Assembly: GCA_025823825.1 (NCBI GenBank)
Contig: GCA_025823825.1_4720.1
Reading direction: 5' to 3' (one strand)
Source of the DNA: a phage
Length of the DNA: 64,000 bases
The position numbers and the translations under genes were made by a program. Every line of letters starts with the position of its first letter. The first letter of the stretch is position 1. The notes under the pieces were generated by a model. That model did not search any database. It saw only the letters and a program-made list of their open reading frames with translations, and had not been told where the DNA came from. Below, one piece after another: positions 1-60,868 of this stretch.

Positions 1-1025
1 TAGTTCAATACATTTCCTAACCCAACCTGAGCCTTGGTTACCCCATGTGGGTTATTGGTGTTGCCGGTATGGGTTGTCAACGTAGCGTTAACGTTATCGA
101 TACGCGTGCTTAAGCCATCGGTGATTGCTTTGATTGCGGCTCGTACGCCCGCTGGTGTTGTGTACAGATTTGTGGCCGTACCGGTAATGGTTGTATTACT
201 ATCAGCTACACCGTAGTTCTCAACGTTTCCGAGTCCCACCTGGGCTTTCGTTACCTTGTGTGGGTTGTTGTAGTTGCTGATGTGCGCAGCAGCACTATCA
301 CCACTCAGGTTAGCGATCATCTTACGCGTCATCGCCAACGTCATGTACAGATTTTCACCGATGGTTTCCAGATCGCTCTCGGTCGCCGTTGTGAAGTTCT
401 GAACATTCCCCAATCCAACTTGAGCCTTGGTTACCCCGTGGGGGTTATCGCGACGATTCTCGTGCTGCAGCAATGCGGTCATTGCTTTATTGAACCCTTC
501 TTCAAGCGGTTCTTTCAATGATTCGATTGCCGCCACCACATCGTCCCACGTCATTGTGTCGGTTTCGACATTATGTTGGTGGTTGATTGGTGGGAATACG
601 GAAGGAACGTCGGCAACCTTTTCCCAGAACGTAACGCGGGGATCGTAAAGGTTGTTGGCTAAAACGTTAAGAATTTGTTGTTGATCAAGTGTAAACTCAC
701 CCCCCAGTGAATAGTAGTTCAGTTGCAACTGTCCACTGAATGCGGTGTCCAACAGCATGATGGAACCGTATAATTCCAGGCCGGTCAGCGCAGCCATGGC
801 ACGGAAGGGGTGAGTGCATAAAAAGTCAACGCCTTCTTCCAGATACGCGTTTGTTTCATGGTTGTAGATCTTTAACCCATTACGGAAATATGGCGCGTAT
901 TTAGGAACGAGAAAGTTAAATCCGGTCCCCGTGGAAGGACGGACAGTGACGAGTTCTTCTGGAACCCATGCGCCATCCAAATTCCCCTGCGGGTTATACG
1001 GAAGGCGTTTAATTTCATCTGTCAT
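1..1025 (-). CDS. tail fibre protein, N-terminal ~340 aa (gene continues past window start)
   Basis: Manual translation from ATG at 1025-1023: MTDEIKRLPYNPQGNLDGAWVPEEL...; three copies of NPH[GK]VTKAQVGLGNV; absent from ORF track because the frame runs off the window edge. Confidence 0.6.
   Translation of the reverse strand, partial: MTDEIKRLPYNPQGNLDGAWVPEELVTVRPSTGTGFNFLVPKYAPYFRNGLKIYNHETNAYLEEGVDFLCTHPFRAMAALTGLELYGSIMLLDTAFSGQLQLNYYSLGGEFTLDQQQILNVLANNLYDPRVTFWEKVADVPSVFPPINHQHNVETDTMTWDDVVAAIESLKEPLEEGFNKAMTALLQHENRRDNPHGVTKAQVGLGNVQNFTTATESDLETIGENLYMTLAMTRKMIANLSGDSAAAHISNYNNPHKVTKAQVGLGNVENYGVADSNTTITGTATNLYTTPAGVRAAIKAITDGLSTRIDNVNATLTTHTGNTNNPHGVTKAQVGLGNVLN
21..450 (-). repeat. 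three ~45-nt in-frame coding repeats (approx 21-65, 211-275, 399-450) encoding the NPH-VTKAQVGLGNV fibre repeat
   Basis: Near-identical DNA segments ...gagccttggttacc(c/t)(c/t)(a/g)tgtgggtt... seen three times within the partial tail-fibre CDS. Confidence 0.7.
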
Positions 1026-2415: not shown

Positions 2416-2458
2416 CATAACCCTCCTCCAACCCATCAGGGAAGGAGGAGGGAATATG
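2416..2458. terminator. conserved palindromic hairpin element, copy 1 (between convergent genes)
   Basis: cata-aCCCTCCTCC-aaccc-atca-gggaa-GGAGGAGGG-aatatg. Confidence 0.6.
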
Positions 2459-11911: not shown

Positions 11912-14470
11912 TTACTGCTCTTCACGTTCCAGCAGATACTCGGAAGCGGTAATACCGTTTACCGTACGTACTGCTTTCAGACGAGTATCATCGCTCAGAA
12001 TTACAGTAACAGATTGCAGACCTTTTACTTTGGTTTCGAAGGTCTTGAACACCTGATCCAGCATACGAGCAATGCTTGGGTTGGTTGCAGCCGATGCGTG
12101 AGTGTAACCGCTCTGATTCAGCTTCAGAATCTTGGCGTTGGTCGGTACGCGAACAACAACATGTGGGCGCATCGCGAATACGCTGTGATTGAACCAGTAA
12201 GCGTCGTTACTATCTTCGTCGGTAACGATGTCTGGATTAACACGCATATCCTCGACAGCCGCATCCGCCAAACGACGTTCGATTTCATCGGCGTCCAGAG
12301 AGCCATCTTTCTCCAGTTCTGCACGATACTCACTCATGGCAACCAGATGACGTTCACGATTCGCTGCAGATTTTTCGTGAGCGGCTTTCAGGTAGTCATG
12401 CATGTTGTACAGTTCAGCCATGGAAAGACGAATGTTCCACTGACCTTCGCCATCACGATTGCAGTAGAGACACTTCAGCATGTTGACCCAGGTGTAGTAG
12501 CAATTGGCGAATTCATCTTCAATGAACTTCTGGTCCATTTTAAGATCGTGAATCAGCCAACCGGACAGTTCTCCGATATCATCAACGAAGCTAGAGATGG
12601 TGGTTTCAGAGAAGTTCTTCGGTACGATACGTTTGATCAGCTTATTGACGTCTTTGGTCATGCTATCGTTCAGGAAATGCCAGATACGCAGAGGAATGAC
12701 ATCTCGATACTGTTGCATGATCTGACGATAAGCTTTGATATCGTCGCTACGACCTTTATCAATAGACAACGCATCCAGGAATTCATGGATTGCATCCAGC
12801 TCTTTGTCGGTATAGGTTCCCAGATAGGAATTGACGGTGGCCAGGAATGCTAATGCGTCGTTTTGGTTGACGTCGGTGTTGGTCTGCTGAATGATCGCCA
12901 CTGCAGCTTTAGTTTCAGCATCCTCAACGCTTGACGCTGCGATCGCGTCGGTGACGGTAAACAGTTTCATTTCGCGCTGTTCACCGACAACGATTGGCTC
13001 ACGCTGAACCGGCTTGTTAAGACTAACGCGAACAACTTCTGCTTGCGCGATACGATCCAGTTTTGCCATTTCCTGCTCTGCCATACGACGAGCGGTTGGA
13101 TCTGATTCAAGTTCGATGTATTCCACTTCTTCCTCCGTGAGGGATGTAATGTCAACAATGGTTTCATGAAGAATTCCGTTTTCGTCGATACGTGCCCGAC
13201 GAGCGAAGTGCCTGAAGTCATACAACGTCGGCCAACGACAATTAGGCGCATAGTCTTTGGCTTTCAGACGCATCTGCATAAATTCATCATGTTGAACAAC
13301 ACGACCGTAACGCTTAGCATCTTCGGTCGCATCAATTGGATTAACGGTCTTTGTTGCCGTAGCGGAACGAGCCGTACGAACCGGTTCCGGTTTCACCTGT
13401 GCCGGTTCAGGTTGAACGGGTTTCTGCTGTCCAGCCTTAACATGCCATTCTGGCTCTTCGTACTGTTCAGCAAATTGCTCAGCCGCTGCAAAGATATCGT
13501 TGATACCACCAATATCTCCTTCAGGATTTGTCGAGTAAATCCGTGGTTGCGGTGCCTCGTAACGCGGCGCTGTAGCAGCAGGTGCCTCATCAACGTTATG
13601 ATCGTCATCACCAACATCATACAAACGGTTGAACGCACAATCCTTCGAATCAATGTACGATGGTGTTTGTGGTTGGACAACCGTAGGCCGAGGTTGTGCG
13701 CCGTATCCTGGTGTTGTTGGAGCCATACCACGCATAACTGCCGGGTTAGGTTGGTATTGTGGTTGCGGGTAGGTTCCACCATACGTGGCGTACGCAGGCT
13801 GTTGCGGTTGACCGTATCCACCACCAACCATCGCACTTGCTTGCGGCCCACGATAAGTCATCCCCATCTGCATCACCTGCTGCTTCAAACCGCGTGACTT
13901 CTGAGCGATTTGCGCTAGGCTTCCGCTTTTATTCAGCTGCGTGTACTTATTCGCGGCTTCCGGGTTAATGCGTGATAATTCGATCGCGCGATAATATTCC
14001 GGGTACTGATTAGGTTCAAAGAGCCACGTTACAAGATGATACAGCGCAACTGTGCTCACAGCAGCAGAGACGATCTGGTCGTCGGACGCGTTCTGTGGCA
14101 TCGGGTTGATGTAAGAGAACACGTTCCAACAACAGTCTTCAACAAGCGATTCCATCATCATATCGTTATTGGTATAACGTGCGACGAACTCGGTTTGTAT
14201 TTTGTCTTGCTGAGCGAAGTCTTTCAGGACATTAAAGATGGCTTGACGGATTTTGACGATCGTCGCTTCTTGGGTGATGAAGTTATAGTTCTGCTGATAT
14301 GAGGGTTGTTGGTATTGTGGTGGTTGATAGGCGTTATTCGGGTATGCGCCGTACGGCGATTGCTGATACTGTTGCTGACGAACCTGTTCAGCCGCATGAT
14401 TAATCGTGCTCGTATAAGGGTTTTCGCTATAGCCCATTTGCTGATACATGTTGTTACTGCCATTATACAT
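11912..14470 (-). CDS. hypothetical protein (852 aa) with Q/Y/P/G-rich low-complexity regions
   Basis: Long ORF; N-terminus ...QQQYQQSPYGAYPNNAYQPPQYQQPSYQQNY... and internal GGGYGQPQQPAYATYGGTYPQPQYQPNP... Confidence 0.75.
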   Translation of the reverse strand: MYNGSNNMYQQMGYSENPYTSTINHAAEQVRQQQYQQSPYGAYPNNAYQPPQYQQPSYQQNYNFITQEATIVKIRQAIFNVLKDFAQQDKIQTEFVARYTNNDMMMESLVEDCCWNVFSYINPMPQNASDDQIVSAAVSTVALYHLVTWLFEPNQYPEYYRAIELSRINPEAANKYTQLNKSGSLAQIAQKSRGLKQQVMQMGMTYRGPQASAMVGGGYGQPQQPAYATYGGTYPQPQYQPNPAVMRGMAPTTPGYGAQPRPTVVQPQTPSYIDSKDCAFNRLYDVGDDDHNVDEAPAATAPRYEAPQPRIYSTNPEGDIGGINDIFAAAEQFAEQYEEPEWHVKAGQQKPVQPEPAQVKPEPVRTARSATATKTVNPIDATEDAKRYGRVVQHDEFMQMRLKAKDYAPNCRWPTLYDFRHFARRARIDENGILHETIVDITSLTEEEVEYIELESDPTARRMAEQEMAKLDRIAQAEVVRVSLNKPVQREPIVVGEQREMKLFTVTDAIAASSVEDAETKAAVAIIQQTNTDVNQNDALAFLATVNSYLGTYTDKELDAIHEFLDALSIDKGRSDDIKAYRQIMQQYRDVIPLRIWHFLNDSMTKDVNKLIKRIVPKNFSETTISSFVDDIGELSGWLIHDLKMDQKFIEDEFANCYYTWVNMLKCLYCNRDGEGQWNIRLSMAELYNMHDYLKAAHEKSAANRERHLVAMSEYRAELEKDGSLDADEIERRLADAAVEDMRVNPDIVTDEDSNDAYWFNHSVFAMRPHVVVRVPTNAKILKLNQSGYTHASAATNPSIARMLDQVFKTFETKVKGLQSVTVILSDDTRLKAVRTVNGITASEYLLEREEQ

Positions 14471-16340: not shown

Positions 16341-17783
16341 TTACTTTTTCGATGACGCCTTCTCAAGAATCTTGAAAAAGGTCATACCTATACCGACAAC
16401 AGCCGCGGTTATGCTTGCAGCGGCTTTCCAAACATCGACGTTACGTTGACGTCGCGCTTCTTCCGCTTCACGTTGTCTTTTTGCCTCTTCATCACGTCGA
16501 CGTATCTCAGCAGCAAACTCGTCGTGCTTACGTTTGGATTCTTCGTCTCGACGACGAAGTTCAGCGACGAATTCTTCATGTTTGCGTTTAGCCTCGTCAT
16601 CACGACGTTTTAAATCAGCTTGATAATCTTCATGTATTTGTCTACGTAGATCATCTTGACGTTTCATTTCGGCTTGGTGTTGTTCCATCCTACGTTTTTG
16701 TTCGTCTTTAAGCTGATCGAGTTCGGCTTTATGTTGTTCATCACGCAGCTTTGCATCAGCGCGATGCGCCTCATGCATCTGTGCGATAACTGCCTTGTGT
16801 TCATCCGCCATACGTCGCATTTCAGCCATCACCCCTTTAAGGGTTTCTTCTGATGCCTTACGTTCGTAGCTACGCTGGTCGAAATCATTTTTGTAGGCTT
16901 CTTTTTGGATGGGGTCGCGCCAATGCAATGCCGACTCACGTGTCGGAAAAACATTGTACTTCCACATCTCTTTTTCCAAATCTTCGACCGGTACGAAGAT
17001 GGAGTCATTATTCCCGAAGGTAACCAACATACCTGGCGCGCCTGCTCCATTCGTTGGTTTTATTTCGAACGCTTTCCCCAACACGTTAACCCATAAGCTA
17101 TACGGATTATGAAAGTCGGGCGGCGTCCAATGGATAGTGAGTTGTGTTCCGAGAATCCGGAAACCCTCTGTTTTTCCCGTCAAGCTCCGCGCGCACGTTG
17201 CGATGTAGGGGTGATCAATCCCTTTCGTAACGTGGTCTGCGCTTTTGTATTCTCCTTTAACTTTTACGATTGCCACGTTGATTTGCGCGACATAAGCAGG
17301 TTGATTAAAGTTCAACGTGTTGAGGTCAATTTGACATATTTCATCCAGCGTATCGTACCAGTCTTGCTGGTCTAATAGACGCGGCATTTTCTCTGTGTTA
17401 ACAATACGACGGATATGCGGTTTCCTTATCGCATAACCTGTGCCGTTTTTAACACGGAGTATATCCCGACGTCTACCCGCGTAGACGAAGTTTCTGAATG
17501 CACCATTCGCATTAGATACGTCATGGCTGTCAACTATTACAGGACTACGAAATTTTGAACGTCGTACGATCCTGAATGTATTGCCGTCCTCAACCCTACC
17601 AGGAATGTACTGGAACATATTGTCGGAGGTGATAACCAACACGGTATGGCCAGATTCGTTAATACATGCCCATCCTAATTCCAGGTCATATAACGGTTCA
17701 GCATAACCGTCAATGCGATAAGCGTGCGTACCATCCCACGGTTCGAACGCGGTATCACATATTGGCATGGAGGGCATCGTCAA
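16341..17783 (-). CDS. hypothetical protein with E/R/K-rich charged helical repeats and C-terminal hydrophobic anchor
   Basis: ORF; probable ATG start at 17777 with GGAGG upstream; repeats RRRDEE(A/S)KRKH(E/D)EF(V/A)AE(L/I); C-terminal AAASITAAVVGIGMTFF. Confidence 0.7.
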   Translation of the reverse strand: MTMPSMPICDTAFEPWDGTHAYRIDGYAEPLYDLELGWACINESGHTVLVITSDNMFQYIPGRVEDGNTFRIVRRSKFRSPVIVDSHDVSNANGAFRNFVYAGRRRDILRVKNGTGYAIRKPHIRRIVNTEKMPRLLDQQDWYDTLDEICQIDLNTLNFNQPAYVAQINVAIVKVKGEYKSADHVTKGIDHPYIATCARSLTGKTEGFRILGTQLTIHWTPPDFHNPYSLWVNVLGKAFEIKPTNGAGAPGMLVTFGNNDSIFVPVEDLEKEMWKYNVFPTRESALHWRDPIQKEAYKNDFDQRSYERKASEETLKGVMAEMRRMADEHKAVIAQMHEAHRADAKLRDEQHKAELDQLKDEQKRRMEQHQAEMKRQDDLRRQIHEDYQADLKRRDDEAKRKHEEFVAELRRRDEESKRKHDEFAAEIRRRDEEAKRQREAEEARRQRNVDVWKAAASITAAVVGIGMTFFKILEKASSKK

Positions 17784-17978
17784 CCTCCATCAGATTGAAA
17801 ACTATCACGCATAATACATTTCCCTTTTTCTTGTTCTTATCAAGCCGACAGCCGACGGTTTCAGCATCGTTCCTAGCGCGAGAACGACCTTACGTGTTGT
17901 CTATGCCTTATTCATCGCAGGCGTCTGTCACCTAGGTAATGTAAGCGTCAAATTTTTTCTATTCGCAACGATAAACGG

Positions 17979-18026
17979 CATAGAAACCTCCCCCAACCCT
18001 TACGGGCTGAGGGAGGCTGACTTATG
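17979..18026. terminator. hairpin element, copy 3 (3' of the capsid-candidate gene)
   Basis: cata-gaaaCCTCCCcc-aaccc-ttac-ggg-ctga-GGGAGG-ctgacttatg; irregular inner loop. Confidence 0.5.
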
Positions 18027-18115
18027 TATCACGGTGCCGGATGAATGTCCGGTGCAATGAAACCATCCGCAACGTTGTCGTCAAGAATATCATCCAACGA
18101 AGCAGCTACGGTAGT

Positions 18116-20338
18116 TCAGTTAGTCTGAACCGGCAGCTTGATGTTTTCGGTGTAGACCTTACGCAGGTTCACAACGTTAATCAGACCCAGCAGCGGGCAG
18201 TTGTTAACGAAGCGGCAGCGCGGCTGAACCATGGTTTCTTTAGAAACCTGACCGTTACGGGTAACCTGAGCAACAGATACCAGTTCCGGTACATACAGGA
18301 ACATACCGAAGGTCAGCGGATCCGGAGAACCCTGGATACCACGAGACAGGGTCACGAAGATCTTATCGCGCAGCATGACGTTCGGGTTATCTACAACCAC
18401 GAAGTTGAAGCTTACACCAACGGTACGGAAATCGCCATCGGTCTGCAGGAACTGCGGGATGTAGTTGTCAGTTGCTACTACGCAACGCGGTTTCTCATCA
18501 GCGTTGGAAGACAGCAGCTGCAGAGCTGGCTGATAACCAGACTCGGAGTACATGCGGTATGCCATCTCACGAATCACGTTCATGATCGCAGCAGACACTT
18601 CAGCACGACGTTCTGCAGTGGTGGTACCCTGAACAGATTTCTCCAGGTCCAGATTGATTTCTTCGAACCACGGACGGATCAGGTAACGACCGAAACCTTC
18701 GATCTGGATGTCACCGAACTGACGGAAGCGAGAGGTCGCAACCGCTTTCAGTGCGTCTTTGTAGCTGAACAGTTTCTCAACCATCAGGTTGTCGAAACGT
18801 GCGTTAGCAGCTTGGATCAGAACGTCCAGGTCAGCAGCGTTTTCTTCCCAATCCAGCGGACGAGGAATGGAGAACGGAGCCAGCAGGCCGATTGCGTAAC
18901 GTTCTTGCTTCATGTTGAAGTCAAGGTGCTTACCGCGCTCACGACGGTTGCTGTTGTTACGGCGGATACGCAGTTCGTAACCAACCAGTTTGAAGCTCAG
19001 GTCTTCAGCCAGTTGTTTGAACTCTTCGCTCTTACGCGGTTGTTCGATGTTGTCCTGATCAACCAGGCGATACAGTTCAGCGTTAGCGCCGTTAACACGC
19101 AGACCCGCTTTCTCTACGTTGGAAGAACCGTAAACTTCGATCGCCAGCTGAGCAGCGGATTTCGCATCGATGATGTCCTGCAGCGCTTCAGCTTTCGCAC
19201 CTTTAACGTCTTTGGTGTTCTCATCAACGAAGATGGAGTGGGTGTCGAACGCCAGGGTCATTTTGCGGAAGTCGCCTTCCAGGGATTTCTGGAAACCGTT
19301 GGTGATCAGACCAGATACGTCGAACGGTACGTAAGAGGTTTTGCTGTGCTTGGTAGATTTGATTTCTACCAGGATTTTGGTCAGCGTGATCTGGGCGTCC
19401 AGCGCGTCGGTGTTGTCGCTGTAACCGTTAGCCAGAATGCTGTCGTCTTCAGCGATACCGATCATGTCGATCAGTTTATCAACAGCCAGGTAAGACGTTT
19501 TATAAGTTACGCCTTTAATTTCGATGTCGCGCGGAGCAACGATCGTTTTATCAACGAAGTACTGCGCGTTGGCATCGTCAGCACGATAGATCGGATGCAG
19601 ATCGGTCACGTCGTTGGACAGAACGTCGTTGTACATGAACGCATCCAGCAGCGGACGACGTACCCAATCAGCCGGAGTACCGTCAGCGTTACGACGCAGG
19701 TGGTTGAACACCAGCGGGCGACGGAAAGATACGTCGTAACCGATCTGGTTCGGAGCCAGAACGATGGTGTTATACAGTTCGTTACCCATGCGGCTCAGAC
19801 GAGAAGCCTTCACGTTGAACACAACGGAGTACGGCATCATGTCACGCAGTTCTTTCTGGTCGTAGGACAGCTGAACCAGTTCTTCAGATTCGCAACCGCA
19901 GGAATCAGCAGCCATCATGACGAAGTTAGAGCTGTCAACTTCACGACCTGACGGAGTGGTGCTGATGTTCATGGAACGTGCTTGTTTAGCATATTCTACC
20001 GGGTTACCATGAGCCAGCATGATCAGTGCTGCTGCACGAGCCTGCTGTGCGTTCATGGTGAACAGCTGTTCTTCAATACGCTGCTTCTCTTCCGGAGTGG
20101 TGGTTTCGAAGCCCAGCATGGACAGAACCGGTTCTTCGGCTTTACGGATGTCGCTGCTGAAGCTCTTAACATCCATTTCGTTAACCAGTTTGTCCATGGA
20201 TTTGAAATCAACCTTAGAAGCAGATTCCATAGACAGGAAGGTGTTCTCCAGACCTTTGTCTGCTGGTTTGCTACCATTAGCGGTCAGGAACTGGCGAGTG
20301 GCCGCGACCTGTTGGCTAAGAAGGGTTTTATCATTCAT
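18116..20338 (-). CDS. highly expressed virion protein, best guess major capsid protein (740 aa); tail sheath is the alternative
   Basis: ATG start with aagga RBS; strongest host-optimal codon bias in the window (CTG/CGT/GGT/AAC); size fits jumbo-phage capsid proteins; identity not verifiable without search. Confidence 0.6.
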   Translation of the reverse strand: MNDKTLLSQQVAATRQFLTANGSKPADKGLENTFLSMESASKVDFKSMDKLVNEMDVKSFSSDIRKAEEPVLSMLGFETTTPEEKQRIEEQLFTMNAQQARAAALIMLAHGNPVEYAKQARSMNISTTPSGREVDSSNFVMMAADSCGCESEELVQLSYDQKELRDMMPYSVVFNVKASRLSRMGNELYNTIVLAPNQIGYDVSFRRPLVFNHLRRNADGTPADWVRRPLLDAFMYNDVLSNDVTDLHPIYRADDANAQYFVDKTIVAPRDIEIKGVTYKTSYLAVDKLIDMIGIAEDDSILANGYSDNTDALDAQITLTKILVEIKSTKHSKTSYVPFDVSGLITNGFQKSLEGDFRKMTLAFDTHSIFVDENTKDVKGAKAEALQDIIDAKSAAQLAIEVYGSSNVEKAGLRVNGANAELYRLVDQDNIEQPRKSEEFKQLAEDLSFKLVGYELRIRRNNSNRRERGKHLDFNMKQERYAIGLLAPFSIPRPLDWEENAADLDVLIQAANARFDNLMVEKLFSYKDALKAVATSRFRQFGDIQIEGFGRYLIRPWFEEINLDLEKSVQGTTTAERRAEVSAAIMNVIREMAYRMYSESGYQPALQLLSSNADEKPRCVVATDNYIPQFLQTDGDFRTVGVSFNFVVVDNPNVMLRDKIFVTLSRGIQGSPDPLTFGMFLYVPELVSVAQVTRNGQVSKETMVQPRCRFVNNCPLLGLINVVNLRKVYTENIKLPVQTN

Positions 20339-20487
20339 TGAAAGTATCCTTTACAGAATTAACTTATATAAGTCGGTCGATAGACCATAGCGTACACGCG
20401 TGCATGCGCCACTATAGTATCAGTAAACACTTACCGTTATTGAGGTCGTGATACAACACTAAAAATGCCGCATAACTTTTCCCTACG

Positions 20488-24272: not shown

Positions 24273-24719
24273 TTAGAAATTATTGCCGAACTGGTTATGG
24301 TTATATGGTTGGTAGTGTCCGTAATTACCTGGGAAGCCACCATACGGCACAGGCTCCGGTTTAGGGATTTCCATGGTCGGATTTTTGGAATTGATTGCCA
24401 TCACGTAAATTGTTACGGGTGATACCGCGCGATTCATTTCGACGGCCACACGACGGATGTAGCCAACGTATGCTGTTATTGCAGGCATTAGCTTGTCCCC
24501 TTCGGTAGTTATAACGGTACCATCAGAAAGAATCTCGCGAACCGCGCACCATTTACCAAGATGAACGCCTTGCTGCGGCTTTATTCCAGTAGCGATAGAG
24601 AGATAGGTATCGTACGTCGTTTGATGATTCGGATGGCTATAGATAGATTCTGCTTTGGTTTCGTCTTTTCCTAAGTATTCGCCTTGCATGGGGGTAGGAG
24701 TTGATGAAGAATGTGGCAT
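24273..24719 (-). CDS. paralog family C member (148 aa)
   Basis: AAGGAG RBS; shares (Y)xHPxxxTTYDxYL(S/T)I...G(K/E/A)W(C/R)(A/M/I)(V/I)REI...DG(T/R)(V/I)(I/V)T with 24831-25691 and 25745-26545. Confidence 0.65.
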   Translation of the reverse strand: MPHSSSTPTPMQGEYLGKDETKAESIYSHPNHQTTYDTYLSIATGIKPQQGVHLGKWCAVREILSDGTVITTEGDKLMPAITAYVGYIRRVAVEMNRAVSPVTIYVMAINSKNPTMEIPKPEPVPYGGFPGNYGHYQPYNHNQFGNNF

Positions 24720-24830
24720 GTTCGATTCTCCTTCGAGTTGTTTGATCGATTGTTCAACTGGTACTGATTACGATTGGTTGATAACAGTAGAGCTACCGCT
24801 TAAAAACTCTACCGTTGTTTAGATACCGTA

Positions 24831-25691
24831 TTAGGATATACGGTGCATCGTCGGTGCGATTGGTCGTTGACCAAGGTAGAATGTATATCTCGGACGATTC
24901 TTCGGTGCCTGGTTTGGTTGAGGATTCTTCGAATCGATAGCTAACACATAGTACTGAAGTGTGGGGTTGAGTGTCGTCAGATAGTTTCTGATGAACTCCT
25001 TGTTTAAACTTTCAGTCGGGGTTAATACATGTCCGTTGATTGTAACGACGGTGCCGTCGGAACGTATTTCACGAACAATGCACCAGGCCCCCGCACCAAC
25101 ATCGGTAGGGATAGTCGTGCTGGGTGTGATGGTTAGATATTTATCGAAGAATTCGCAGCAAAGAGGATGCTTATAGACCGTTACGGTATCATCTCCTGGC
25201 GAGGTTCTCTCTTTTGTTACAAGATCCATTGCTGGTACGAAAGTGTTGATTTTGGCAACCTTATCGGCATCTTCGTTCGCTTCGATATAAATCTCTGCTT
25301 TACCGTACACGCTCTGAACTAAACGACGTAACTGTTCGTATGTTTTCGGTGAGGTTAGCTGCACCCGACTGAGCAGTTCATCGTACCAAGCTTCGAAGGT
25401 GCTTGTTGGTATCTTAACGTATGCCTTATTCCCGGTTTCATTTTCATCCCGGAAGATAATCGCAACGGTATCAGGCTCGTCAAGAGAGTCCAGGTAAACG
25501 ATGTGCTCGACCAACGCAGAAAATGTCTTACGTCCAATTCCCCCATAGTACGGGATTGCTGAATGAACCAGCCGCCAGTTACATGAAGTTTGGATATGAT
25601 CGAAGGCGTTGATCATGTTTTTACTATAACGAAAAATTTCAGTAAAATATTCTTTACGTTCTTTACTAAGACGTTTGTATATCTTGGTCAT
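24831..25691 (-). CDS. paralog family C member (286 aa)
   Basis: gaggag RBS; conserved C-terminal domain GAWCIVREIRSDGTVVTINGHVLTP...YYVLAIDSKNP. Confidence 0.7.
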   Translation of the reverse strand: MTKIYKRLSKERKEYFTEIFRYSKNMINAFDHIQTSCNWRLVHSAIPYYGGIGRKTFSALVEHIVYLDSLDEPDTVAIIFRDENETGNKAYVKIPTSTFEAWYDELLSRVQLTSPKTYEQLRRLVQSVYGKAEIYIEANEDADKVAKINTFVPAMDLVTKERTSPGDDTVTVYKHPLCCEFFDKYLTITPSTTIPTDVGAGAWCIVREIRSDGTVVTINGHVLTPTESLNKEFIRNYLTTLNPTLQYYVLAIDSKNPQPNQAPKNRPRYTFYLGQRPIAPTMHRIS

Positions 25692-25744
25692 TTTTGTAGC
25701 TCCTCGATTAAAGTAAAGATGAACGCGATCATTTATTATCGCTT

Positions 25745-26545
25745 TTAGTTTTTACCATTCCCCCAGCTAGGTTCTTCGTAGAAATGATGCGGATAACCAG
25801 AGTAGGAACCCATGACACAAGAGGCCGTTTCTTTTCGTGAATCGATGACCAGCGCATAAAACTGTCTGAGGTTCGACAACATAGAGAAATAAGACGACAG
25901 CACTTTTTCGTTTAACGCATCGCACGGTAAGCAGGTGCGACCGCAAAACGTCACAATACGGCCATCAGGATAGATCTCACGAATCATTCGCCATTCACCG
26001 ATGTCGACCGGCGACGGTGTAGATGTACCGCCCGTTATTGTTAAATATCGGTCGTACGTAGTACGGCATTCAGGATGAACGTAAATCGGTTGGGCATCAA
26101 TACTATCGTTTTCTGTTTGATCTTTACTCACGTATACCTCAAGGTAGATTGTTGGTAACCCGGTTAGAACGCCAGTATCACGACGTTTTTTGGTAATCCG
26201 GGGACGGATATTATCGAGCACGCCTTCCAGTTTTTCTGCGACTTCGTCAGCCGGTAATATATACCCGTATGTTGGTTCTGGGTCATCATCGTGGCTAAAT
26301 AAGATACGACAGTCGTTTTTATTAAATTCTATATCTTCAGGTGGGAAGATGATGACGCGAACCGTATGGCGTTCTGCGATATAAAATCCTTCAGGCCCCT
26401 CAGTTTTGGTAAGTGTAAAGGACCAGGATGAATGATCTTCAAGTGACGTGCCTGCCAGGAAAAAGTCCGCCCGAATTGGTGCGTTCCATTTCGCGATCAT
26501 ATTGGCGTGACCAATAACGCCTAATTTTTGATAAATATCTGTCAT
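25745..26545 (-). CDS. paralog family C member (266 aa)
   Basis: gagga RBS; conserved C-terminal domain GEWRMIREIYPDGRIVTFCGRTCLP...FYALVIDSRKE; TATATTAC-containing element upstream. Confidence 0.7.
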   Translation of the reverse strand: MTDIYQKLGVIGHANMIAKWNAPIRADFFLAGTSLEDHSSWSFTLTKTEGPEGFYIAERHTVRVIIFPPEDIEFNKNDCRILFSHDDDPEPTYGYILPADEVAEKLEGVLDNIRPRITKKRRDTGVLTGLPTIYLEVYVSKDQTENDSIDAQPIYVHPECRTTYDRYLTITGGTSTPSPVDIGEWRMIREIYPDGRIVTFCGRTCLPCDALNEKVLSSYFSMLSNLRQFYALVIDSRKETASCVMGSYSGYPHHFYEEPSWGNGKN

Positions 26546-31958: not shown

Positions 31959-31992
31959 CATAAAGCCCACCCCGAAGGGCGGGCTGTTTATG
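31959..31992. terminator. hairpin element, copy 6 (shorter variant)
   Basis: cata-aAGCCCaCCCC-gaag-GGGCGGGCT-gtttatg. Confidence 0.5.
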
Positions 31993-35393: not shown

Positions 35394-36542
35394 TTAAAAG
35401 TAATATTTCAGCGCCTCGCGAGAGACATCAAGCATAGCCGCTGTTGAATTCGTAAAGAACTCGGCATAGCCCACAAGCGGCACCTTGATCCACGCGGTAT
35501 ACGCTGTAAGGTATCGAGAAAGGGCTACCATAGCATCATCAGAAGCAGTAGTAACTGACAACTGACCTTGTTGACGATAAACGTCGTTAAGTTTTGCTTG
35601 TAGATTCCCTGCGATTTCGAGTAACTCGTTGGCGTACTTTTTACGATGGTAACTAACCAGCAAATCAACACCCGTATTTACAGACTCGAGTAGCACACCA
35701 ACTTGTTCTAATGTTGGCGTTGTAACCACCATATCCAGTTCAACGGACGGTACATCCTGGACTTCAAACCGTGCAGATTGAATAGCGAGGGACTGTTGAA
35801 TTGAACCAGAACCTGAGGCGGTAACCTGATCGAGTCGTAGCGTACGGTTGCCCAGTAACGTTACGTTGACGAGTTTCGATTCGTTCAGCGTACTGTAGAC
35901 TTTATGCAATAACGTATACGCATCACGGTTAATCACATCGATTAATGCGGTATCCGTCTGTTTTAAGATAATGTCGAGCGCTCTATCTAACGTATTAGCG
36001 AACTGCTTGAAGTCATCACGGAACGACGAAGACAAGAGATATTCAGCGATTGCTAAATTCTGCTTGTATAACGTATTCCCGGTTGTGAAATCGAACCCAA
36101 AACTGTTCCCATACCGTAGGTGCGGAGCCAACGTCGACGAAGCTTCGAAGCTTTGCGCGATGGGTTTCCGACCAACGGCTTTTGTGTAATGACGGCGGAT
36201 GTTGCTGAGTTCGAGTTGTAGTGCGCGACTACGATCGATAAACCGTGCGATAAACGCGGTAATGTTCCGCAACGTTGTCCAGATCGCATCGATGATGGCT
36301 TTGATGATTTTCATCGCAAGCTGATTGTACGATTCCATCGTGAGGAGATCAGCACTTTCTGTGGTATAACCGGTTGCCGGAATACCGCCTGCTTGCTGAT
36401 AAATAAGCTGGTGAATTTGTCGTTGCGTTGCTGTCTCTGGCACAGGTAATGTTTTTAACAAGCTTAACGCTTGAATCTGTCCGTCATAGGTCTGCAGCAT
36501 TGCTGGTTTCCTCAAGTTCGAGATGCGCGTCAAGATAATCAT
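35394..36542 (-). CDS. virion/head-type protein, paralog family D (~370 aa)
   Basis: ORF; likely start at the second Met (about 36500); central helical region similar to family D. Confidence 0.7.
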   Translation of the reverse strand: MIILTRISNLRKPAMLQTYDGQIQALSLLKTLPVPETATQRQIHQLIYQQAGGIPATGYTTESADLLTMESYNQLAMKIIKAIIDAIWTTLRNITAFIARFIDRSRALQLELSNIRRHYTKAVGRKPIAQSFEASSTLAPHLRYGNSFGFDFTTGNTLYKQNLAIAEYLLSSSFRDDFKQFANTLDRALDIILKQTDTALIDVINRDAYTLLHKVYSTLNESKLVNVTLLGNRTLRLDQVTASGSGSIQQSLAIQSARFEVQDVPSVELDMVVTTPTLEQVGVLLESVNTGVDLLVSYHRKKYANELLEIAGNLQAKLNDVYRQQGQLSVTTASDDAMVALSRYLTAYTAWIKVPLVGYAEFFTNSTAAMLDVSREALKYYF

Positions 36543-37885: not shown

Positions 37886-37939
37886 CATAAAACCTTCCTC
37901 CAACCCAACAGGGAAGGAGGAAGGGATATAGTGGTTATG
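37886..37939. terminator. hairpin element, copy 7 (tandem minus-strand genes)
   Basis: cata-aaaCCTTCCTCC-aaccc-aaca-gggaa-GGAGGAAGG-gatatagtggttatg. Confidence 0.6.
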
Positions 37940-39224
37940 CTTTTTCGGTCGCTGCGTTGAAGTATTTCGCTGCAGCAAATACAGCATCCGCATATTGGCG
38001 TATCGAAGCGCGAAGAATCTTGGTTGACAATACCGTACTTAAACGTGCCATTTCAGAAACCGCGCCTACATAAGGACGGATGGTTTCACGATCGGCTTCA
38101 GGCAGCTTGTCAAGCATGTCGCCCCACTTCGTTTTGATTTTCATACCGTTGAGTTTAGCGGTACGCTCCACAGAACCAGCCAAAGCTTCAACCATGTGGA
38201 AATAAGAGGGGTCGATCGTACGGAACACGTTAAGATAGGAAGTCAACGCACCTTTCAGTTCGTTATCGTCTTTGAAAATGTTTGCGTTCTCTATCTCACC
38301 GGTCACCGTCGTCTCGGCTTCAACCCGAATATTTTTCACCAACGTATAGGCTTTAATCGCGTCACGTTCGTTTTCGACGGCGTCGAGACCTTGAATAACG
38401 AAACGTTTCCCACCACTTTCTGGAAAAACAACTTTATTCAGAGCGGATTTGATAGCCAGCAGGTATTTGTCTAAGATAGACGGAAGCAGAGTTAGGTCGG
38501 TGAGGTCTGCGACCTTTTTATTGATATCGGCTACTTGCTTAAACAATGAATCCATCCCGCTTGCGCTTGCAGCGAGTTGTTCGATATGCTTGCTTGCAAA
38601 CATGGCATTCGCTGATTTCGCATTAGGGAACATATTGACCATATTTTCAGTGGGCTTATCCAGTTGTTTGATATGGCGTTCACCTTTATTCACGGCGGTT
38701 GCGATGCCGACAATTTTGTTGTATGCGACGACCAGGTTCTTGAACAGCATCTGGAGCAGTTTGAACAGTTGTTCAGCGATATTTGCAATGATTACCCAGA
38801 CGGCATATAACGCTTGCGCTGCGCGCTCTTTAAAGCCTTCCAGTACAATAGCTTGCCCTTCCACCAAACGATCGTCAGCTTGGAACATGTCTTCATCAGA
38901 CATCCCCAGGTTTGCTGCTGATGTCGAAGCAATCTGACGGATAAAGGCGACGTCGCTTGCACGTGCTTCAGGGATCGTGGGTGCGATCATATACGCTGTA
39001 TCTTCCAGTGTCGCTGATGTACGCACTGCAATCTCAGCCAGTTCGCTGGATTCATCGATTGCCTCGTCGGTACGTTGAATTACCAACTCAACTTCACCCT
39101 CTTCAATTTCTGCGTTAGGATCGTTCTGCTCCGCCGGAATCGTTGCGAGGAGATCTTCAGCACTCAGTAGAGAGAGTTCGAATGCGTTTTTATTGACGTT
39201 GTCAAAAAGAGAAATGCGGGCCAT
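37935..39224 (-). CDS. virion/head-type protein, paralog family D (429 aa)
   Basis: ORF; SDVAFIRQIASTSAANLGMS...VEGQAIVLEGFKERAAQALYAVW aligns with 39234-40574. Confidence 0.75.
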   Translation of the reverse strand: MARISLFDNVNKNAFELSLLSAEDLLATIPAEQNDPNAEIEEGEVELVIQRTDEAIDESSELAEIAVRTSATLEDTAYMIAPTIPEARASDVAFIRQIASTSAANLGMSDEDMFQADDRLVEGQAIVLEGFKERAAQALYAVWVIIANIAEQLFKLLQMLFKNLVVAYNKIVGIATAVNKGERHIKQLDKPTENMVNMFPNAKSANAMFASKHIEQLAASASGMDSLFKQVADINKKVADLTDLTLLPSILDKYLLAIKSALNKVVFPESGGKRFVIQGLDAVENERDAIKAYTLVKNIRVEAETTVTGEIENANIFKDDNELKGALTSYLNVFRTIDPSYFHMVEALAGSVERTAKLNGMKIKTKWGDMLDKLPEADRETIRPYVGAVSEMARLSTVLSTKILRASIRQYADAVFAAAKYFNAATEKA

Positions 39225-39233
39225 GTTAGTTCC

Positions 39234-40574
39234 TTAACCTTTGGTATAAGCGTTAACGAGAGTATTGATAAATGAAGTCAGTGCGCGAAGATATTGGTAA
39301 GCGAATTGGTTTTCAATGCGGTTCTCTTTACCACAAAGCAGAATCGCGCGCTTAACGAGCTTAGGATAGATCTCGACATACGGTTGGTAGCTTGCGTCAA
39401 AATTCTGCTCGTTGAAGCGTTTCATGGTGATTTCCTGGATACGCTCCATGGTGCGAATTTTATTGCGAGAGAATATCTCAGAGAAAGCACGTCCGCGTTT
39501 TGTTACCATCAACAAATCTTTCGCGAACGTAAGTTGTCGAACGCTACGCAAATCGTCAGGTGTTGGTAGGACGTACGTTTCTGGATCGTTATCCCATTCA
39601 ACATCTTCAACGACAATATCCAAGTCGAGGTAACGTTTAACAGCATCGATGATATTGTCTTTTGACGCATCGAATTCTTTCAAGAAGACTGCACCGTTGA
39701 CGTAGCGGATGCGTTTCCCGGAAACCGTTGGGGTGATAACATCAGCACCTTCCACGGAACCGCGATTTTCCAGTGTCGATTTGACAGCGTGCAAGAAAGA
39801 CAGATAATCAACAGGAAGTTTTTCAACCTTATCTAAATGGAAGTCGATGATGTTTAACCCTAAACCATCAATAACTGAATAACCGTCCGATTTAAGGAAC
39901 ATCTGATTGAAGGTATCAATGTTGCTTTTCAGCGCGTCTACACCACCAACGTTGTTACGGTTAGGGAAAAGCGTCCGCCACTCCGCTTTAAACGCAACTT
40001 CTTTATTTTCCTCGTATTTGCCTTTGGGCATCTGTTCGAGGGCTGCAACGGCTTTCTGAAAATTACGTGTCTCGTCGTAAACAAGACGGGTAAGCTTCTC
40101 GAAAGCTGCTGCCAGTGTCAGGGCAATATCAACAATGATATCCCAGATCTTTTTCATGGCTTTTACAACGGTGTCCTTAAACCCTTCAACAACCAAAGCT
40201 TCTCCAACTTCAACACGATCGGTTGGAGCTAACAATGTTTCAGAGGGTAGACCCAAAGCAATCGATGCGGATTCTTGAACGTTACGAACCAATGCAACGT
40301 CGCTGTAATTAGCCGATTCGATAGTCGGGGCAACATCAAAACTGATTTCCCGTAATGCTTCAACAGCAGGGAAAGCACGATCAAGTGCATCTTCATGTTC
40401 GTCGATTGTTGCCAAACGTAATTCAACACCGTCCGCGTCGATGACCTCAGCTGTCGGTTCCGCAGCAAGCGCCTCAGCAACAATAGGATATTTTTCAAAC
40501 GCCTCAAGGCTGATATCGCCTTGCGACCCAAATAGCGGTATGTGTACCATGTGTTGTCTCCAGTAATGATTCAA
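39234..40574 (-). CDS. virion/head-type protein, paralog family D (~438 aa)
   Basis: ORF; track start is TTG, likely ATG near 40550 (MVHIPLFG...) with ggag RBS; SDVALVRNVQESASIALGL...VEVGEALVVEGFKDTVVKAMKKIW. Confidence 0.75.
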   Translation of the reverse strand: MNHYWRQHMVHIPLFGSQGDISLEAFEKYPIVAEALAAEPTAEVIDADGVELRLATIDEHEDALDRAFPAVEALREISFDVAPTIESANYSDVALVRNVQESASIALGLPSETLLAPTDRVEVGEALVVEGFKDTVVKAMKKIWDIIVDIALTLAAAFEKLTRLVYDETRNFQKAVAALEQMPKGKYEENKEVAFKAEWRTLFPNRNNVGGVDALKSNIDTFNQMFLKSDGYSVIDGLGLNIIDFHLDKVEKLPVDYLSFLHAVKSTLENRGSVEGADVITPTVSGKRIRYVNGAVFLKEFDASKDNIIDAVKRYLDLDIVVEDVEWDNDPETYVLPTPDDLRSVRQLTFAKDLLMVTKRGRAFSEIFSRNKIRTMERIQEITMKRFNEQNFDASYQPYVEIYPKLVKRAILLCGKENRIENQFAYQYLRALTSFINTLVNAYTKG

Positions 40575-40591: not shown

Positions 40592-40636
40592 CATAGAACC
40601 CTCTCCCAACCCGTGAGGGAAGGGAGAGGGAATATG
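40592..40636. terminator. hairpin element, copy 8 (tandem minus-strand genes)
   Basis: cata-gaaCCCTCTCCC-aaccc-gtga-gggaa-GGGAGAGGG-aatatg. Confidence 0.6.
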
Positions 40637-41984: not shown

Positions 41985-42049
41985 AATTTTGTTTCCTTTA
42001 CAATAAATTGCACATTAGCTAATGCGGCTTAAGTGAACCGTCAGTTCAC

Positions 42050-42712
42050 TTAAAAGCCCTTAAAACCCGGTGCCATAGGTTGCCCAAACACCGCATTCAA
42101 AGTACATATGATGTCCTGGATACCATTGTCCCAATGGAGCCAAGTACGCACCATCTCTTCGTCTGACAACGCGATATAACTCATAAGTTTACCGCTGCTT
42201 TCCAGACGTTGGTGTGAACTTAACGATTGACGATCTGACCAGTTATCAATCAGTTGTCCAGCAATCTGAACGTTTGTGTCTCGTCTACCCGTGTGAATGA
42301 ATCGTAGCGTATCACGGATAAACTCCAGACTGGTGAAGTTCAGATTTGGGTTATGGCTGTTCATTTCCACCCAATCGGTGATGGGGTACATCAAACGATA
42401 AAGGGTAGAAAGAACCTGACGCTCATATTTCCAATCATCGAGAGGAGTACCGTCGACCAAACGCTGATACAAACTAACAACGTCACGATCGTAGTTCTCC
42501 TGGCGTTTTACGCCGTTAACCGGAAATCCAAAGAACCCGGTACCGTATAACGTTAAAGGGACGTCACGAAGTGCACTCATACAGCCGCCTCTTCTTTTCG
42601 TTTGATGTCGTAACGAAGTTTCTTCAGCCTGTCTTCGTGATATTCGATCTGCTGCTGGATTTTTGGATCGTTGCCCGCATTCTGTTGCTTTTGCTTCAGT
42701 GACAAAATCCAA
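42050..42712 (-). CDS. hypothetical protein (~175-220 aa)
   Basis: ORF; track start overlaps upstream gene, probable start at internal Met near 42580. Confidence 0.6.
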   Translation of the reverse strand: MDFVTEAKATECGQRSKNPAADRISRRQAEETSLRHQTKRRGGCMSALRDVPLTLYGTGFFGFPVNGVKRQENYDRDVVSLYQRLVDGTPLDDWKYERQVLSTLYRLMYPITDWVEMNSHNPNLNFTSLEFIRDTLRFIHTGRRDTNVQIAGQLIDNWSDRQSLSSHQRLESSGKLMSYIALSDEEMVRTWLHWDNGIQDIICTLNAVFGQPMAPGFKGF

Positions 42713-48878: not shown

Positions 48879-48921
48879 CATAACCCTCCTCCAACCCGTA
48901 AGGGAAGGAGGAGGGAATATG
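48879..48921. terminator. hairpin element, copy 9 (convergent)
   Basis: cata-aCCCTCCTCC-aaccc-gtaa-gggaa-GGAGGAGGG-aatatg; right flank aatatgctgttat identical to copy 1. Confidence 0.6.
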
Positions 48922-58382: not shown

Positions 58383-58435
58383 CCCCTCCCCCTGGCGGAA
58401 GCCGGAGGGAGGGGTGGAGGTTTTATGCGTTTTTA
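58383..58435. terminator. hairpin element, copy 11, with T-run on plus strand (terminator of DNA polymerase fragment gene)
   Basis: CCCCTCCCCC-tggcggaagccgg-AGGGAGGGG-tggaggttttatgcgttttt. Confidence 0.6.
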
Positions 58436-58879: not shown

Positions 58880-58892
58880 TGCTGCTGCTCCT

Positions 58893-59186: not shown

Positions 59187-59227
59187 ACAACCCTTCCCCG
59201 GCCTTGACGGCTAGGGAAGGGGCTATG
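59184..59227. terminator. hairpin element, copy 12
   Basis: cata-caaCCCTTCCCC-ggccttgacggcta-GGGAAGGGG-ctatg. Confidence 0.5.
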
Positions 59228-59235
59228 CTACGTTG

Positions 59236-59664: not shown

Positions 59665-59670
59665 GTATAT

Positions 59671-60066: not shown

Positions 60067-60098
60067 TTTTTATCCTTAATGTTATCGATTTGGAAATA

Positions 60099-60866: not shown

Positions 60867-60868
60867 GA

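Follow-up and report, generated by a model that had tools for sequence, protein, structure and literature searches.

Two genes on the minus strand of the 64,000-nucleotide stretch of phage DNA analysed here (contig GCA_025823825.1_4720.1; the whole stretch is called the window) stand apart from their neighbours in codon usage. One encodes a protein of 740 amino acids and the other a protein of 443, and both open reading frames (ORFs) were recovered as an earlier, sequence-only reading of this DNA had described them (Table 1). The window is 92–98% identical at the nucleotide level to Escherichia phage vB_EcoM_Goslar, and its source is a Goslar-like jumbo phage of E. coli, phiKZ-like and nucleus-forming. 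The Goslar genome is 237 kb long and has about 230 genes. Divergence between the window and Goslar varies widely by region, with dS values between 0.01 and 1.2 as a result of mosaic recombination. No tRNA genes were found in the window, nor across the whole Goslar genome.

Table 1. Positions and codon statistics of the features discussed, numbered from the first nucleotide of the window.
Feature	Position	Strand	CAI	Nc	GC3	Remarks
740-aa gene (capsid gene)	18116-20338	-	0.798	30.1	0.598	
Codons 1-157 of the capsid gene	19868..20338	-				Probable N-terminal propeptide
443-aa gene (PF12699 internal head protein gene)	40653-41984	-	0.751	30.5	0.486	
The 46 remaining ORFs (100 aa or longer)			0.27-0.52	43-61		
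Antisense ORF, 636 codons	18041..19951	+	0.39			Codon register 0 with the capsid gene
Putative Shine-Dalgarno context TGTAAAGGA	20347..20355	-				8 nt before the capsid ATG
Putative Shine-Dalgarno context TGTAAAGGA	41994..42002	-				9 nt ahead of the 443-aa gene's ATG
Hairpin, then UUUCUAUG	17985..18018	-				About 100 nt downstream of the capsid stop
Hairpin, then UUCUAUG	40599..40630	-				About 20 nt downstream of the stop of the 443-aa gene
Candidate late-promoter core TATG in CGCTATGGTC	20386..20389	-				48 nt upstream of the capsid ATG; speculative
Candidate late-promoter core TATG in ACCTATGGCA	42074..42077	-				90 nt upstream of the 443-aa gene's ATG; speculative
Orphan 852-aa gene (Goslar gp38 homolog)	11912-14470		0.51			
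Neighbour of the 443-aa gene	35394-36542					phiKZ_IP match below threshold
Neighbour of the 443-aa gene	39234-40574					phiKZ_IP match below threshold

The 740-aa protein matches the Pfam family PhiKZ_MCP (PF25620) with 725.7 bits (E = 5e-218; cutoff 27), residues 98–731 aligning to profile positions 2–635 of 635, and PHROG 3231, "major head protein", with E = 2e-164. Along its full length of 740 residues it shares 99.6% identity with Goslar gp41, and it occupies the same genomic position, the two genes being separated by three amino-acid and 14 synonymous differences. A search of the PDB returned two chains entitled "Major capsid protein", 11bt (740 aa, E = 0) and 36za (residues 158–740), together with phiKZ gp120 (8y6v), which belongs to the same Pfam family and for which the Goslar preprint reports about 26% identity (10.64898/2026.04.21.720040). 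According to that cryoEM study, gp41 has the HK97 fold and builds a T=27 capsid, each virion holding 1,615 copies, its chains being modelled as hexons and pentons (PDB 11bt, 36za). The protein of the window is thus an HK97-fold major capsid protein of the phiKZ gp120 family and the ortholog of gp41, its fold being taken from identity to the solved chains. This agrees with the first choice of the sequence-only reading, which had kept a contractile tail sheath as its alternative. The sheath of Goslar, gp218, is similar in size (690 aa) and also abundant (282 copies), but it is encoded at 197–199 kb, about 150 kb away and outside the window; no sheath family occurs among the Pfam and PHROG matches of the 740-aa protein, whose match to PhiKZ_MCP is full-length, and only three residues distinguish it from the protein modelled in hexons and pentons. 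Family match, gp41 identity and the location of gp218 together refute the sheath assignment, to which we attach a vanishingly small probability.

The first 157 residues of the capsid protein are probably a propeptide removed at maturation. Residues 1–157 of gp41 lack density, and proteolysis as in phiKZ has been suggested (10.64898/2026.04.21.720040); in the protein of the window an S-E-E motif ends at E153, and by analogy cleavage would also occur in this phage.

The 443-aa protein matches PF12699 (phiKZ_IP) with 73.7 bits (cutoff 27), residues 85–422 aligning to profile positions 6–385 of 387, and PHROGs 5750 and 2497, "internal head protein". It is 87% identical to Goslar gp58 and has the same genomic position, which makes it a PF12699 internal head or ejected protein orthologous to gp58; a PDB sequence search returned no solved relative. 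The gene is the last of a tandem paralog cluster adjoining head-vertex genes, and the upstream gene encodes a PhiKZ_gp91 vertex-binding protein. Two neighbours match phiKZ_IP below threshold (Table 1) and a nearby 1,125-aa gene matches an internal-head-protein PHROG; the corresponding gp58 paralog cluster of Goslar is syntenic with phiKZ gp92–97. Quantitative mass spectrometry on virions of Goslar gave about 2,150 copies of gp58 against 50–330 for its five paralogs, the label-free (LFQ) estimates carrying an error of about +/-50%, and the host is injected with gp58. Transferred to an ortholog at 87% identity, these data suggest that many copies of the 443-aa protein are packaged in the head and leave it together with the DNA on ejection; the sequence-only reading, too, had taken it for an abundant internal head protein. 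Like the gp93-type "inner body" or ejected proteins of phiKZ, it combines the PF12699 domain with an acidic N-terminal region (residues 1–115, net charge -27). In the Goslar virion gp58 is the single dominant member of the family. CryoEM of Goslar showed no inner body.

Relative to gp58 the 443-aa protein carries a three-residue insertion and differs at 53 residues, the differences lying, with one exception, after residue 176; dS is 0.086 over residues 1–176 and 0.48 over residues 177–443. The gene is a recombination mosaic relative to gp58. At the codons replaced between the two genes, the geometric-mean weight is 0.67 in the window and 0.71 in Goslar, as compared with about 0.4 for the background, and the codon bias described below has been upheld through this divergence.

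We measured codon usage with the codon adaptation index (CAI), alongside the effective number of codons (Nc) and GC3. The weights for CAI were derived from E. coli K-12, using tufA, fusA and 28 genes for ribosomal proteins; these 30 genes come from a single chromosomal region, and the reference accordingly differs from a genome-wide, expression-based set. The comparison comprised the 46 other ORFs of at least 100 aa in the window. Across all 48, both islands included, CAI averages 0.41 (sd 0.10), and the two genes lie far outside the range of the remainder (Table 1), at a level comparable with tufA (0.84), fusA (0.79) and the reference-set average (0.68). When the codons of each protein were redrawn in 2,000 rounds from the usage pooled over the 46 remaining genes, CAI fell to 0.391 +/- 0.016 for the 740-aa protein and 0.439 +/- 0.022 for the 443-aa protein, placing the real genes at z = 25 and z = 14 respectively. 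The claim that both use host-optimal codons, unlike their neighbours, is thus borne out.

Among the codons that had been singled out, four are enriched in the two islands, with these shares in the capsid gene, the 443-aa gene and the other genes respectively: CTG is 96, 86 and 24% of leucine codons, CGT 72, 92 and 55% of arginine, GGT 82, 54 and 48% of glycine, and AAC 93, 75 and 64% of asparagine. The fifth, GAA (77, 87 and 71% of glutamate), has similar shares in all gene sets and so barely discriminates. Neither gene contains an AGA, AGG, CGA, CGG, ATA, CTA, TTA, GGG, CCC, ACA or TCG codon. Preferred codons end in G (CTG, CCG, CAG), C (AAC, ATC, TTC, ACC), T (CGT, GGT, GCT, GTT, TCT) or A (GAA, AAA), and because so many end in T or A, the further suggestion of a general preference for third-position G or C is only partly true: GC3 is moderately raised in the capsid gene and equals the background in the 443-aa gene.

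By their relative usage of synonymous codons (RSCU) the two genes correlate with E. coli ribosomal-protein and elongation-factor genes at r = 0.963 (capsid gene) and 0.927 (443-aa gene), with the rest of the window at r = 0.66–0.74, and with 21 ordinary E. coli genes at r = 0.57. The bias is hence towards the highly expressed genes of the host, not towards E. coli DNA in general, and the orders of second choices match as well (GCT > GCA ~ GCG > GCC; GTT > GTA > GTG > GTC; TCT > TCC ~ AGC). It runs evenly along each gene and ends at the gene borders, although the first 50 codons are lower (CAI 0.62 in the capsid gene, 0.60 in the 443-aa gene) and, by block, the putative propeptide scores 0.74 against 0.81 for the mature part. 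Less optimised 5' codons are commonly reported for highly expressed bacterial genes. Translational selection should also lower synonymous divergence, an effect that is weak here. Six natural variants, for which we drew on four extra contigs carrying an identical capsid protein, gave a pS of 0.036 for the capsid gene and of 0.038, 0.051 and 0.078 for three neighbours, a marginal gap; most polymorphisms exchange C and T and thereby one of the two best codons for the other.

These observations bear on whether the islands might instead be compositional or horizontally acquired segments, derived for instance from host DNA or another phage. GC content does rise to 0.51–0.52 across 18–20 kb from about 0.46 in the flanks, and the 443-aa gene is visibly mosaic. 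Yet the latter has the GC3 of its background and so is not a base-composition island, the fit to ribosomal-protein genes far exceeds that to ordinary E. coli genes, and the bias is uniform within the genes and stops at their borders. Homologs of both proteins are moreover all phage proteins of the phiKZ-like lineage, and the same bias recurs in three unlinked Goslar genes, all encoding highly abundant proteins. An origin of this kind is already largely refuted, and we consider it extremely unlikely.

The Goslar proteome allows codon bias to be set against abundance, its virion copy numbers being applied, through orthology, to the phage of the window. CAI and copy number are correlated over 105 Goslar virion proteins (Spearman 0.59–0.60, p about 1e-11), and likewise among the Goslar genes in the range covered by the window (Spearman 0.60, n = 34), consistent with the high expression that had been deduced from the codons. 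gp41 and gp58 are the top two of the whole Goslar genome both in CAI and in residues per virion. Five genes lead the CAI ranking, gp41 (0.80), gp58 (0.78), gp214 (0.72), gp23 (0.72) and gp246 (0.69), the next standing at 0.57; the first four are all among the five most abundant virion proteins, and gp246 is chimallin, the nuclear-shell protein of Goslar. CAI does not correlate with dS per gene between the window and Goslar (rho 0.11), dS being dominated by mosaic recombination.

There are exceptions in both directions. Weak bias goes with high abundance in Goslar gp158 (about 926 copies, CAI 0.42) and gp88 (about 737 copies, CAI 0.48), while the gp38 homolog, an orphan 852-aa gene in which CTG makes up 62% of leucine codons, has a CAI of 0.51 and about 25 copies per virion. 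Pfam and PHROG scans of the gp38 homolog and of the gp45 homolog, another orphan with raised CAI, returned nothing informative.

Both genes also share flanking features (Table 1). The putative Shine-Dalgarno 9-mer TGTAAAGGA occurs three times in the window, two of them ahead of the two islands, and the same is true in Goslar. Hairpins with a common type of C/T-rich stem follow both genes: that after the capsid gene folds at -31.3 kcal/mol (z = -5.9), with no shuffled sequence as stable, and that after the 443-aa gene at -28.1 kcal/mol (z = -4.8), a 39-nt element at the latter being 100% identical to the stretch of Goslar that directly follows the gp202 stop. Of the two, the capsid-gene hairpin is terminator-like and possibly provides an mRNA-stabilising 3' end. 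Late promoters of phiKZ have the consensus 5'-TATG-3', the G being the start site (PMC4666361), and a candidate core lies upstream of each gene, that of the 443-aa gene falling within the 3' end of the vertex-protein gene upstream. Chance alone makes TATG a common sequence. Around the capsid gene, a sigma-70 scan found no promoter-like site and an intrinsic-terminator scan found a single chance-level terminator, inside the gene. Such an outcome is expected, since phiKZ-like phages manage without host RNA polymerase, as PMC4666361 states for phiKZ and as we assume for Goslar-like phages.

Such features raise the question of whether the bias arises at the level of DNA or mRNA, by transcription-associated mutation, mRNA stability or export, or avoidance of nuclease or defence motifs, rather than from decoding. 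The strong hairpins and the common 5' UTR motif are RNA-level features that appear to be under selection at both genes, and heavy transcription of both is to be expected. A mutational bias associated with strand or transcription would, however, push third positions one way, whereas the preferred endings vary by amino acid, and an r = 0.96 fit to the tRNA-adapted codon set of the host would not follow from any mechanism known at the RNA level. We regard a cause of this type as very unlikely.

The pattern, together with precedent, makes it highly probable that translational selection on the two virion genes in greatest demand explains both codon islands. At 1,615 copies of 740 aa, the capsid protein would require about 1.2 million residues per virion, and about 2,150 copies of the internal head protein, each of about 440 aa, would take about 0.95 million. 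In these phages mRNAs leave the phage nucleus and are read by host ribosomes, according to 10.1101/2023.09.22.559000; with no tRNA genes of the phage's own, selection is therefore expected to favour the codons of abundant E. coli tRNAs. Selection for fast, accurate and ribosome-sparing translation would have driven the synonymous codons of both late genes to the host optimum, the target set being that of host ribosomal-protein and elongation-factor genes, and genes with a demand of tens to hundreds of copies would experience much weaker selection and remain near the mutational background of the phage. Output would likely be raised further by the strong Shine-Dalgarno context, the stable 3' hairpins and, probably, late promoters of the TATG type.

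An additional consequence concerns the long antisense ORF across the capsid gene, which the sequence-only reading had dismissed as artefactual. The capsid gene contains one TTA, CTA or TCA codon where 22.5 are expected, and avoidance of these codons clears stops from the codon-aligned antisense frame, which is why the ORF is so long; the sole exception, TCA at codon 130, supplies the antisense stop at 19949–19951. It could be thought a real overlapping gene on account of its staying open in six of six natural variants and far exceeding the antisense ORFs of other genes in length. Its openness nevertheless has a single cause in the sense codons, and the six variants give a pN/pS of 6.3 for the antisense frame against 0.01 for the sense frame. 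The ORF has no Pfam or PHROG match and no annotation in Goslar, its CAI is 0.39 (Table 1), and its amino acids mirror reverse-complemented optimal codons (V, R, Q, T, F). It is an artefact and not a gene, the opposite view having next to no probability.

Codon optimisation of genes for abundant proteins is a textbook effect and already known. Adaptation of phage structural genes to the host was documented for 74 phages by Lucks et al. in 2008 (PMC2266997), and a bias due to translational selection can be separated from GC3 (PMC2266997; Chithambaram et al. 2014, PMC4032129). Hence the phenomenon has been established since at least 2008, and both proteins are already characterised in the near-identical Goslar; our literature search found no paper discussing codon usage in Goslar. 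Compared with the phages of those two studies, the effect is unusually sharp here, with five of about 230 genes, and none of the rest, at the CAI of ribosomal-protein genes, and in Goslar it can be calibrated on measured copy numbers.

Codon bias, read from the raw sequence, was by itself enough to single out the two virion proteins that are most abundant in a 237-kb phage, and CAI can rank uncharacterised high-copy proteins in jumbo phages for attention. A caution follows for annotation: strong codon optimisation opens long antisense frames that are spurious, and gene callers may list them as ORFs. The capsid and 443-aa genes are obvious targets for attenuation by synonymous recoding, and could double as strong expression cassettes. 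Two bolder readings, which we put forward tentatively and think on balance unlikely, go further. On the first, CAI is in this phage lineage so sharp a read-out of protein demand per infection that it also flags abundant proteins missed by virion studies. The 852-aa orphan might then serve in assembly, perhaps in the manner of a scaffold, or within the cell, being made in quantity but not kept in the particle. On the second, the combination of extreme optimisation with unusually fast, mosaic divergence of the C-terminal 60% in the 443-aa protein would fit a post-ejection role at the host interface better than that of a passive inner-body scaffold.

The single near-identical match for the 740-aa protein in a tblastn search of phage genomes is gp41 of Escherichia phage vB_EcoM_Goslar (99.6% amino acid identity), all remaining matches, to phiKZ-like jumbo phages that infect Erwinia, Xanthomonas, Pseudomonas, Ralstonia and others, staying under 35% identity. 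Positions 25.3-87.6 kb of the Goslar genome align with the window at 92-98% DNA identity with a small number of indels and replaced segments, and because of this the window phage is a close yet separate member of Goslar's lineage, within the nucleus-forming Chimalliviridae. The identical 740-aa sequence turns up in 110 index blocks from public assemblies, with 229-241 kb contigs from three metagenome assemblies at ENA and one of 237 kb from NCBI GCA_015324645.1 among them, from which Goslar-like phages appear to be widespread.

The proposal, made from sequence, that this is the capsid gene was correct: besides its identity to gp41, the protein matches PF25620 (PhiKZ_MCP, Pfam) at 725.7 bits across the whole profile, PHROG 3231 ('major head protein') and the phiKZ gp120 structure 8y6v. 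Tail sheath, then offered as the alternative, is excluded, since the sheath of Goslar is gp218, encoded far outside the window. An S-E-E motif ends at E153 and agrees with S/A/G-X-E, the rule for cleavage in phiKZ that Thomas et al. are said to have described in 2012. The prediction of an HK97 fold, suggested as a check, has in effect been settled by experiment on Goslar, where gp41 displays the canonical fold in a T=27 capsid of 1,615 copies, its N-terminal 157 residues missing, presumably by proteolysis (10.64898/2026.04.21.720040).

In Pfam, the 443-aa protein scores above the cutoff for PF12699 (phiKZ_IP); its gene closes a cluster of paralogs, adjoins a PhiKZ_gp91-type vertex protein gene and has Goslar gp58 as its positional ortholog. 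Virion proteomics of Goslar had already estimated gp58 at about 2,150 copies, compared with 50-330 for its paralogs gp53-gp57, and the phage injects gp58 into its host, so that the description of an abundant internal head protein holds. All but one of the 53 residue differences from gp58 fall beyond residue 176. At these replacements the codons remain close to optimal (mean weight 0.67 in the window gene and 0.71 in Goslar), and the bias is accordingly being kept up and is no relic. The 443-aa gene and its gp56-homologous paralog are recombination mosaics relative to Goslar: dS switches from 0.086 (residues 1-176) to 0.48 (residues 177-443) in the former, and the latter is 77% identical to its counterpart with dS 1.2, most neighbouring genes having 97-100% protein identity.

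Both genes are present at the coordinates originally given, and lie on the minus strand. Codon adaptation index (CAI) weights were derived from 28 ribosomal-protein genes, tufA and fusA of E. coli K-12 MG1655, and CAI and Nc were scored on a non-overlapping set of window ORFs, with the 46 others of at least 100 aa as comparison. This comparison with host ribosomal genes, also proposed as a check, separates the two genes from all others (see table), on a scale where the reference set averages 0.68, tufA and fusA reach 0.84 and 0.79, and ordinary neighbouring E. coli genes average 0.34. In 2,000 recodings of each protein by the codon usage of the 46 genes, CAI was 0.391 +/- 0.016 (capsid) and 0.439 +/- 0.022 (443-aa), leaving the observed values 25 and 14 SD away.

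Features of the window, with coordinates and strand
Feature	Coordinates	Strand	Properties
Capsid gene	18116-20338	-	740 aa; CAI 0.798, Nc 30.1, GC3 0.598
443-aa gene (gp58 ortholog)	40653-41984	-	CAI 0.751, Nc 30.5, GC3 0.486
Remaining 46 ORFs (100 aa or longer)			CAI 0.27-0.52, Nc 43-61
gp56 homolog	37935-39224	-	internal-head-protein paralog
gp38 homolog	11912-14470	-	852 aa; CAI 0.51, fourth-highest in window
gp40 homolog	16341-17783		
AAAAAATTTGACGCTTACATTACCTAGGTGA motif	17925-17955	-	upstream of gp40 homolog
Antisense ORF	18041-19951	+	exact codon register with capsid gene
Hairpin, CCTCC...GGAGG	2422-2448	-	intergenic
Hairpin, CCTCC...GGAGG	17985-18018	-	intergenic
Hairpin, CCTCC...GGAGG	31964-31985	-	intergenic
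Hairpin, CCTCC...GGAGG	40599-40630	-	intergenic
Hairpin, CCTCC...GGAGG	48885-48911	-	intergenic
Segment missing from Goslar	24306-26540		2.2 kb
ORF of that segment	24273-24719	-	148 aa; ordinary codon usage
ORF of that segment	24831-25691	-	286 aa; ordinary codon usage
ORF of that segment	25745-26545	-	266 aa; ordinary codon usage
Family-B DNA polymerase gene	56582-58333	+	583 aa; intact
Candidate accessory cassette	58430-60882		ORFs of 225, 142, 131 and 255 aa

Leucine is encoded by CTG in 96% (capsid) and 86% (443-aa) of cases, against 24% elsewhere in the window; CGT and CGC are the sole arginine codons, AAC, GGT, ACC, CCG, ATC and TTC are strongly preferred, and eleven rare codons have no occurrence in the codon counts of either gene. 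Among the optimal codons named in the sequence-only reading, CTG, CGT, GGT and AAC stand, but GAA hardly discriminates (77% and 87% versus 71% elsewhere), and the label of third-position G/C is unfit, GC3 of the 443-aa gene being at background and many preferred codons ending in T or A. CAI is lower over the first 50 codons (0.62 and 0.60), a 5' dip of the kind often described in bacterial genes with high expression.

Relative synonymous codon usage (RSCU) correlates with that of the E. coli genes for ribosomal proteins and elongation factors at 0.963 (capsid) and 0.927 (443-aa), compared with 0.57 for 21 ordinary E. coli genes and 0.66-0.74 for the rest of the window, and the secondary preferences of the host set for Ala, Val and Ser are reproduced. 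The bias is thus directed at the translationally optimal codons of the host; this resemblance, together with the unchanged GC3 of the 443-aa gene, argues against the two genes being a compositional or horizontally acquired island. No tRNA genes are found in the window or the whole Goslar genome, so decoding relies wholly on the host tRNA pool.

The full Goslar genome was put together from annotated stretches for a genome-wide view of CAI, in which gp41 (0.80), gp58 (0.78), gp214 (0.72), gp23 (0.72) and gp246 (0.69) lead and the sixth value is 0.57. The first four all rank within the top five virion proteins by abundance; gp246 is chimallin, described in PMC10541120 as the main component of the shell around the phage nucleus, and because of this role it is probably made in large amounts. 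Among the 105 proteins detected in Goslar virions (copy numbers from Table S4 of 10.64898/2026.04.21.720040, which are Goslar's and carry an error of about +/-50%), CAI scales with copy number (Spearman 0.59-0.60, p about 1e-11; Pearson 0.68 with log copies; Spearman 0.60 within the gene range of the window), which is in line with the original reading of abundant virion components. Counted in residues per virion, the capsid gene (about 1.2 million) comes first and the 443-aa gene (about 0.95 million) second. There are exceptions: gp158 and gp88 are abundant yet weakly biased, and the gp38 homolog has biased codons yet is scarce in virions. In the latter CTG supplies 62% of Leu codons, Pfam and PHROG give no informative match, and Goslar virions contain only about 25 copies of gp38; this orphan could be an abundant protein outside the virion. 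The lower rate of synonymous change that would be expected is marginal at best.

The long ORF antisense to the capsid gene, already suspected to be an artefact of the bias, is confirmed as such. Stops in its register derive solely from sense TTA, CTA or TCA, of which the capsid gene has 1 against 22.5 expected, and the lone exception, TCA at codon 130, provides its stop at 19949-19951. Across six natural variants the antisense frame has a pN/pS of 6.3, compared with 0.01 for the sense frame, and neither Pfam nor PHROG gives a match to the antisense translation.

Putative expression signals accompany both genes. A common 9-mer, TGTAAAGGA (three occurrences in the window), lies 8-9 nt before each ATG, and CTATGG motifs 48 nt (capsid) and 90 nt (443-aa) upstream of the start codons are candidate late promoters. 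Very stable C/T-rich hairpins stand 3' of the capsid and 443-aa genes (-31 and -28 kcal/mol, z = -5.9 and -4.8), each followed by U(U)CUAUG, and every hairpin of this family in the window has TATG within a few bases after it. Hairpins 3' of Goslar gp214, gp22, gp217, gp53 and gp88 are likewise followed by TATG, that of gp246 by TTATAC instead, the arrangement holding in six of seven Goslar genes with a 3' hairpin; versions of about 50 nt are repeated at several sites of that genome, some annotated as terminators. Because TATG defines the late promoters of phiKZ, with G as the start site (PMC4666361), these elements may be terminator-promoter junctions. Separately, AAAAAATTTGACGCTTACATTACCTAGGTGA is closely akin to AAAAAAATTTCAGGGTTATATTACCTAGGTGA, found upstream of the Goslar nuclear-shell gene, and includes TTACC, the core of AAanTTACc, which is the middle promoter motif of phiKZ (PMC4666361); its 13-mer occurs three times in the window with up to 2 mismatches, which is not significant by itself.

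Some segments differ from Goslar. Only about 40 bp and the small gp47 stand there in place of the 2.2-kb segment between flanking homologous blocks. The DNA polymerase gene is the intron-less allele: in Goslar (stretch L002, 5887-7667) a 1.78-kb insertion interrupts it after codon 499, encoding the HNH/NUMOD1 endonuclease gp69 and containing an RNA that resembles a group I intron (Rfam RF00028; 44.7 bits, E = 1e-9, under the gathering score of 50) and lacks annotation in the Goslar record. Over 58430-60882, which corresponds to Goslar 83.3-84.4 kb, nucleotide similarity is slight or absent, save a 308-bp piece at 78%; this segment, whose small ORFs differ from Goslar's, resembles a variable cassette of accessory genes.

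In the searched literature, no paper discussing codon usage in Goslar was found. Both proteins were characterised before in that near-identical phage, and the finding is already known in kind: the pattern matches the one that Lucks et al. (2008) described in many phages for the genes of heads and tails. The evidence supports a conventional cause for the bias, namely translational selection acting on the two late genes with the highest demand in a phage that lacks tRNA genes.
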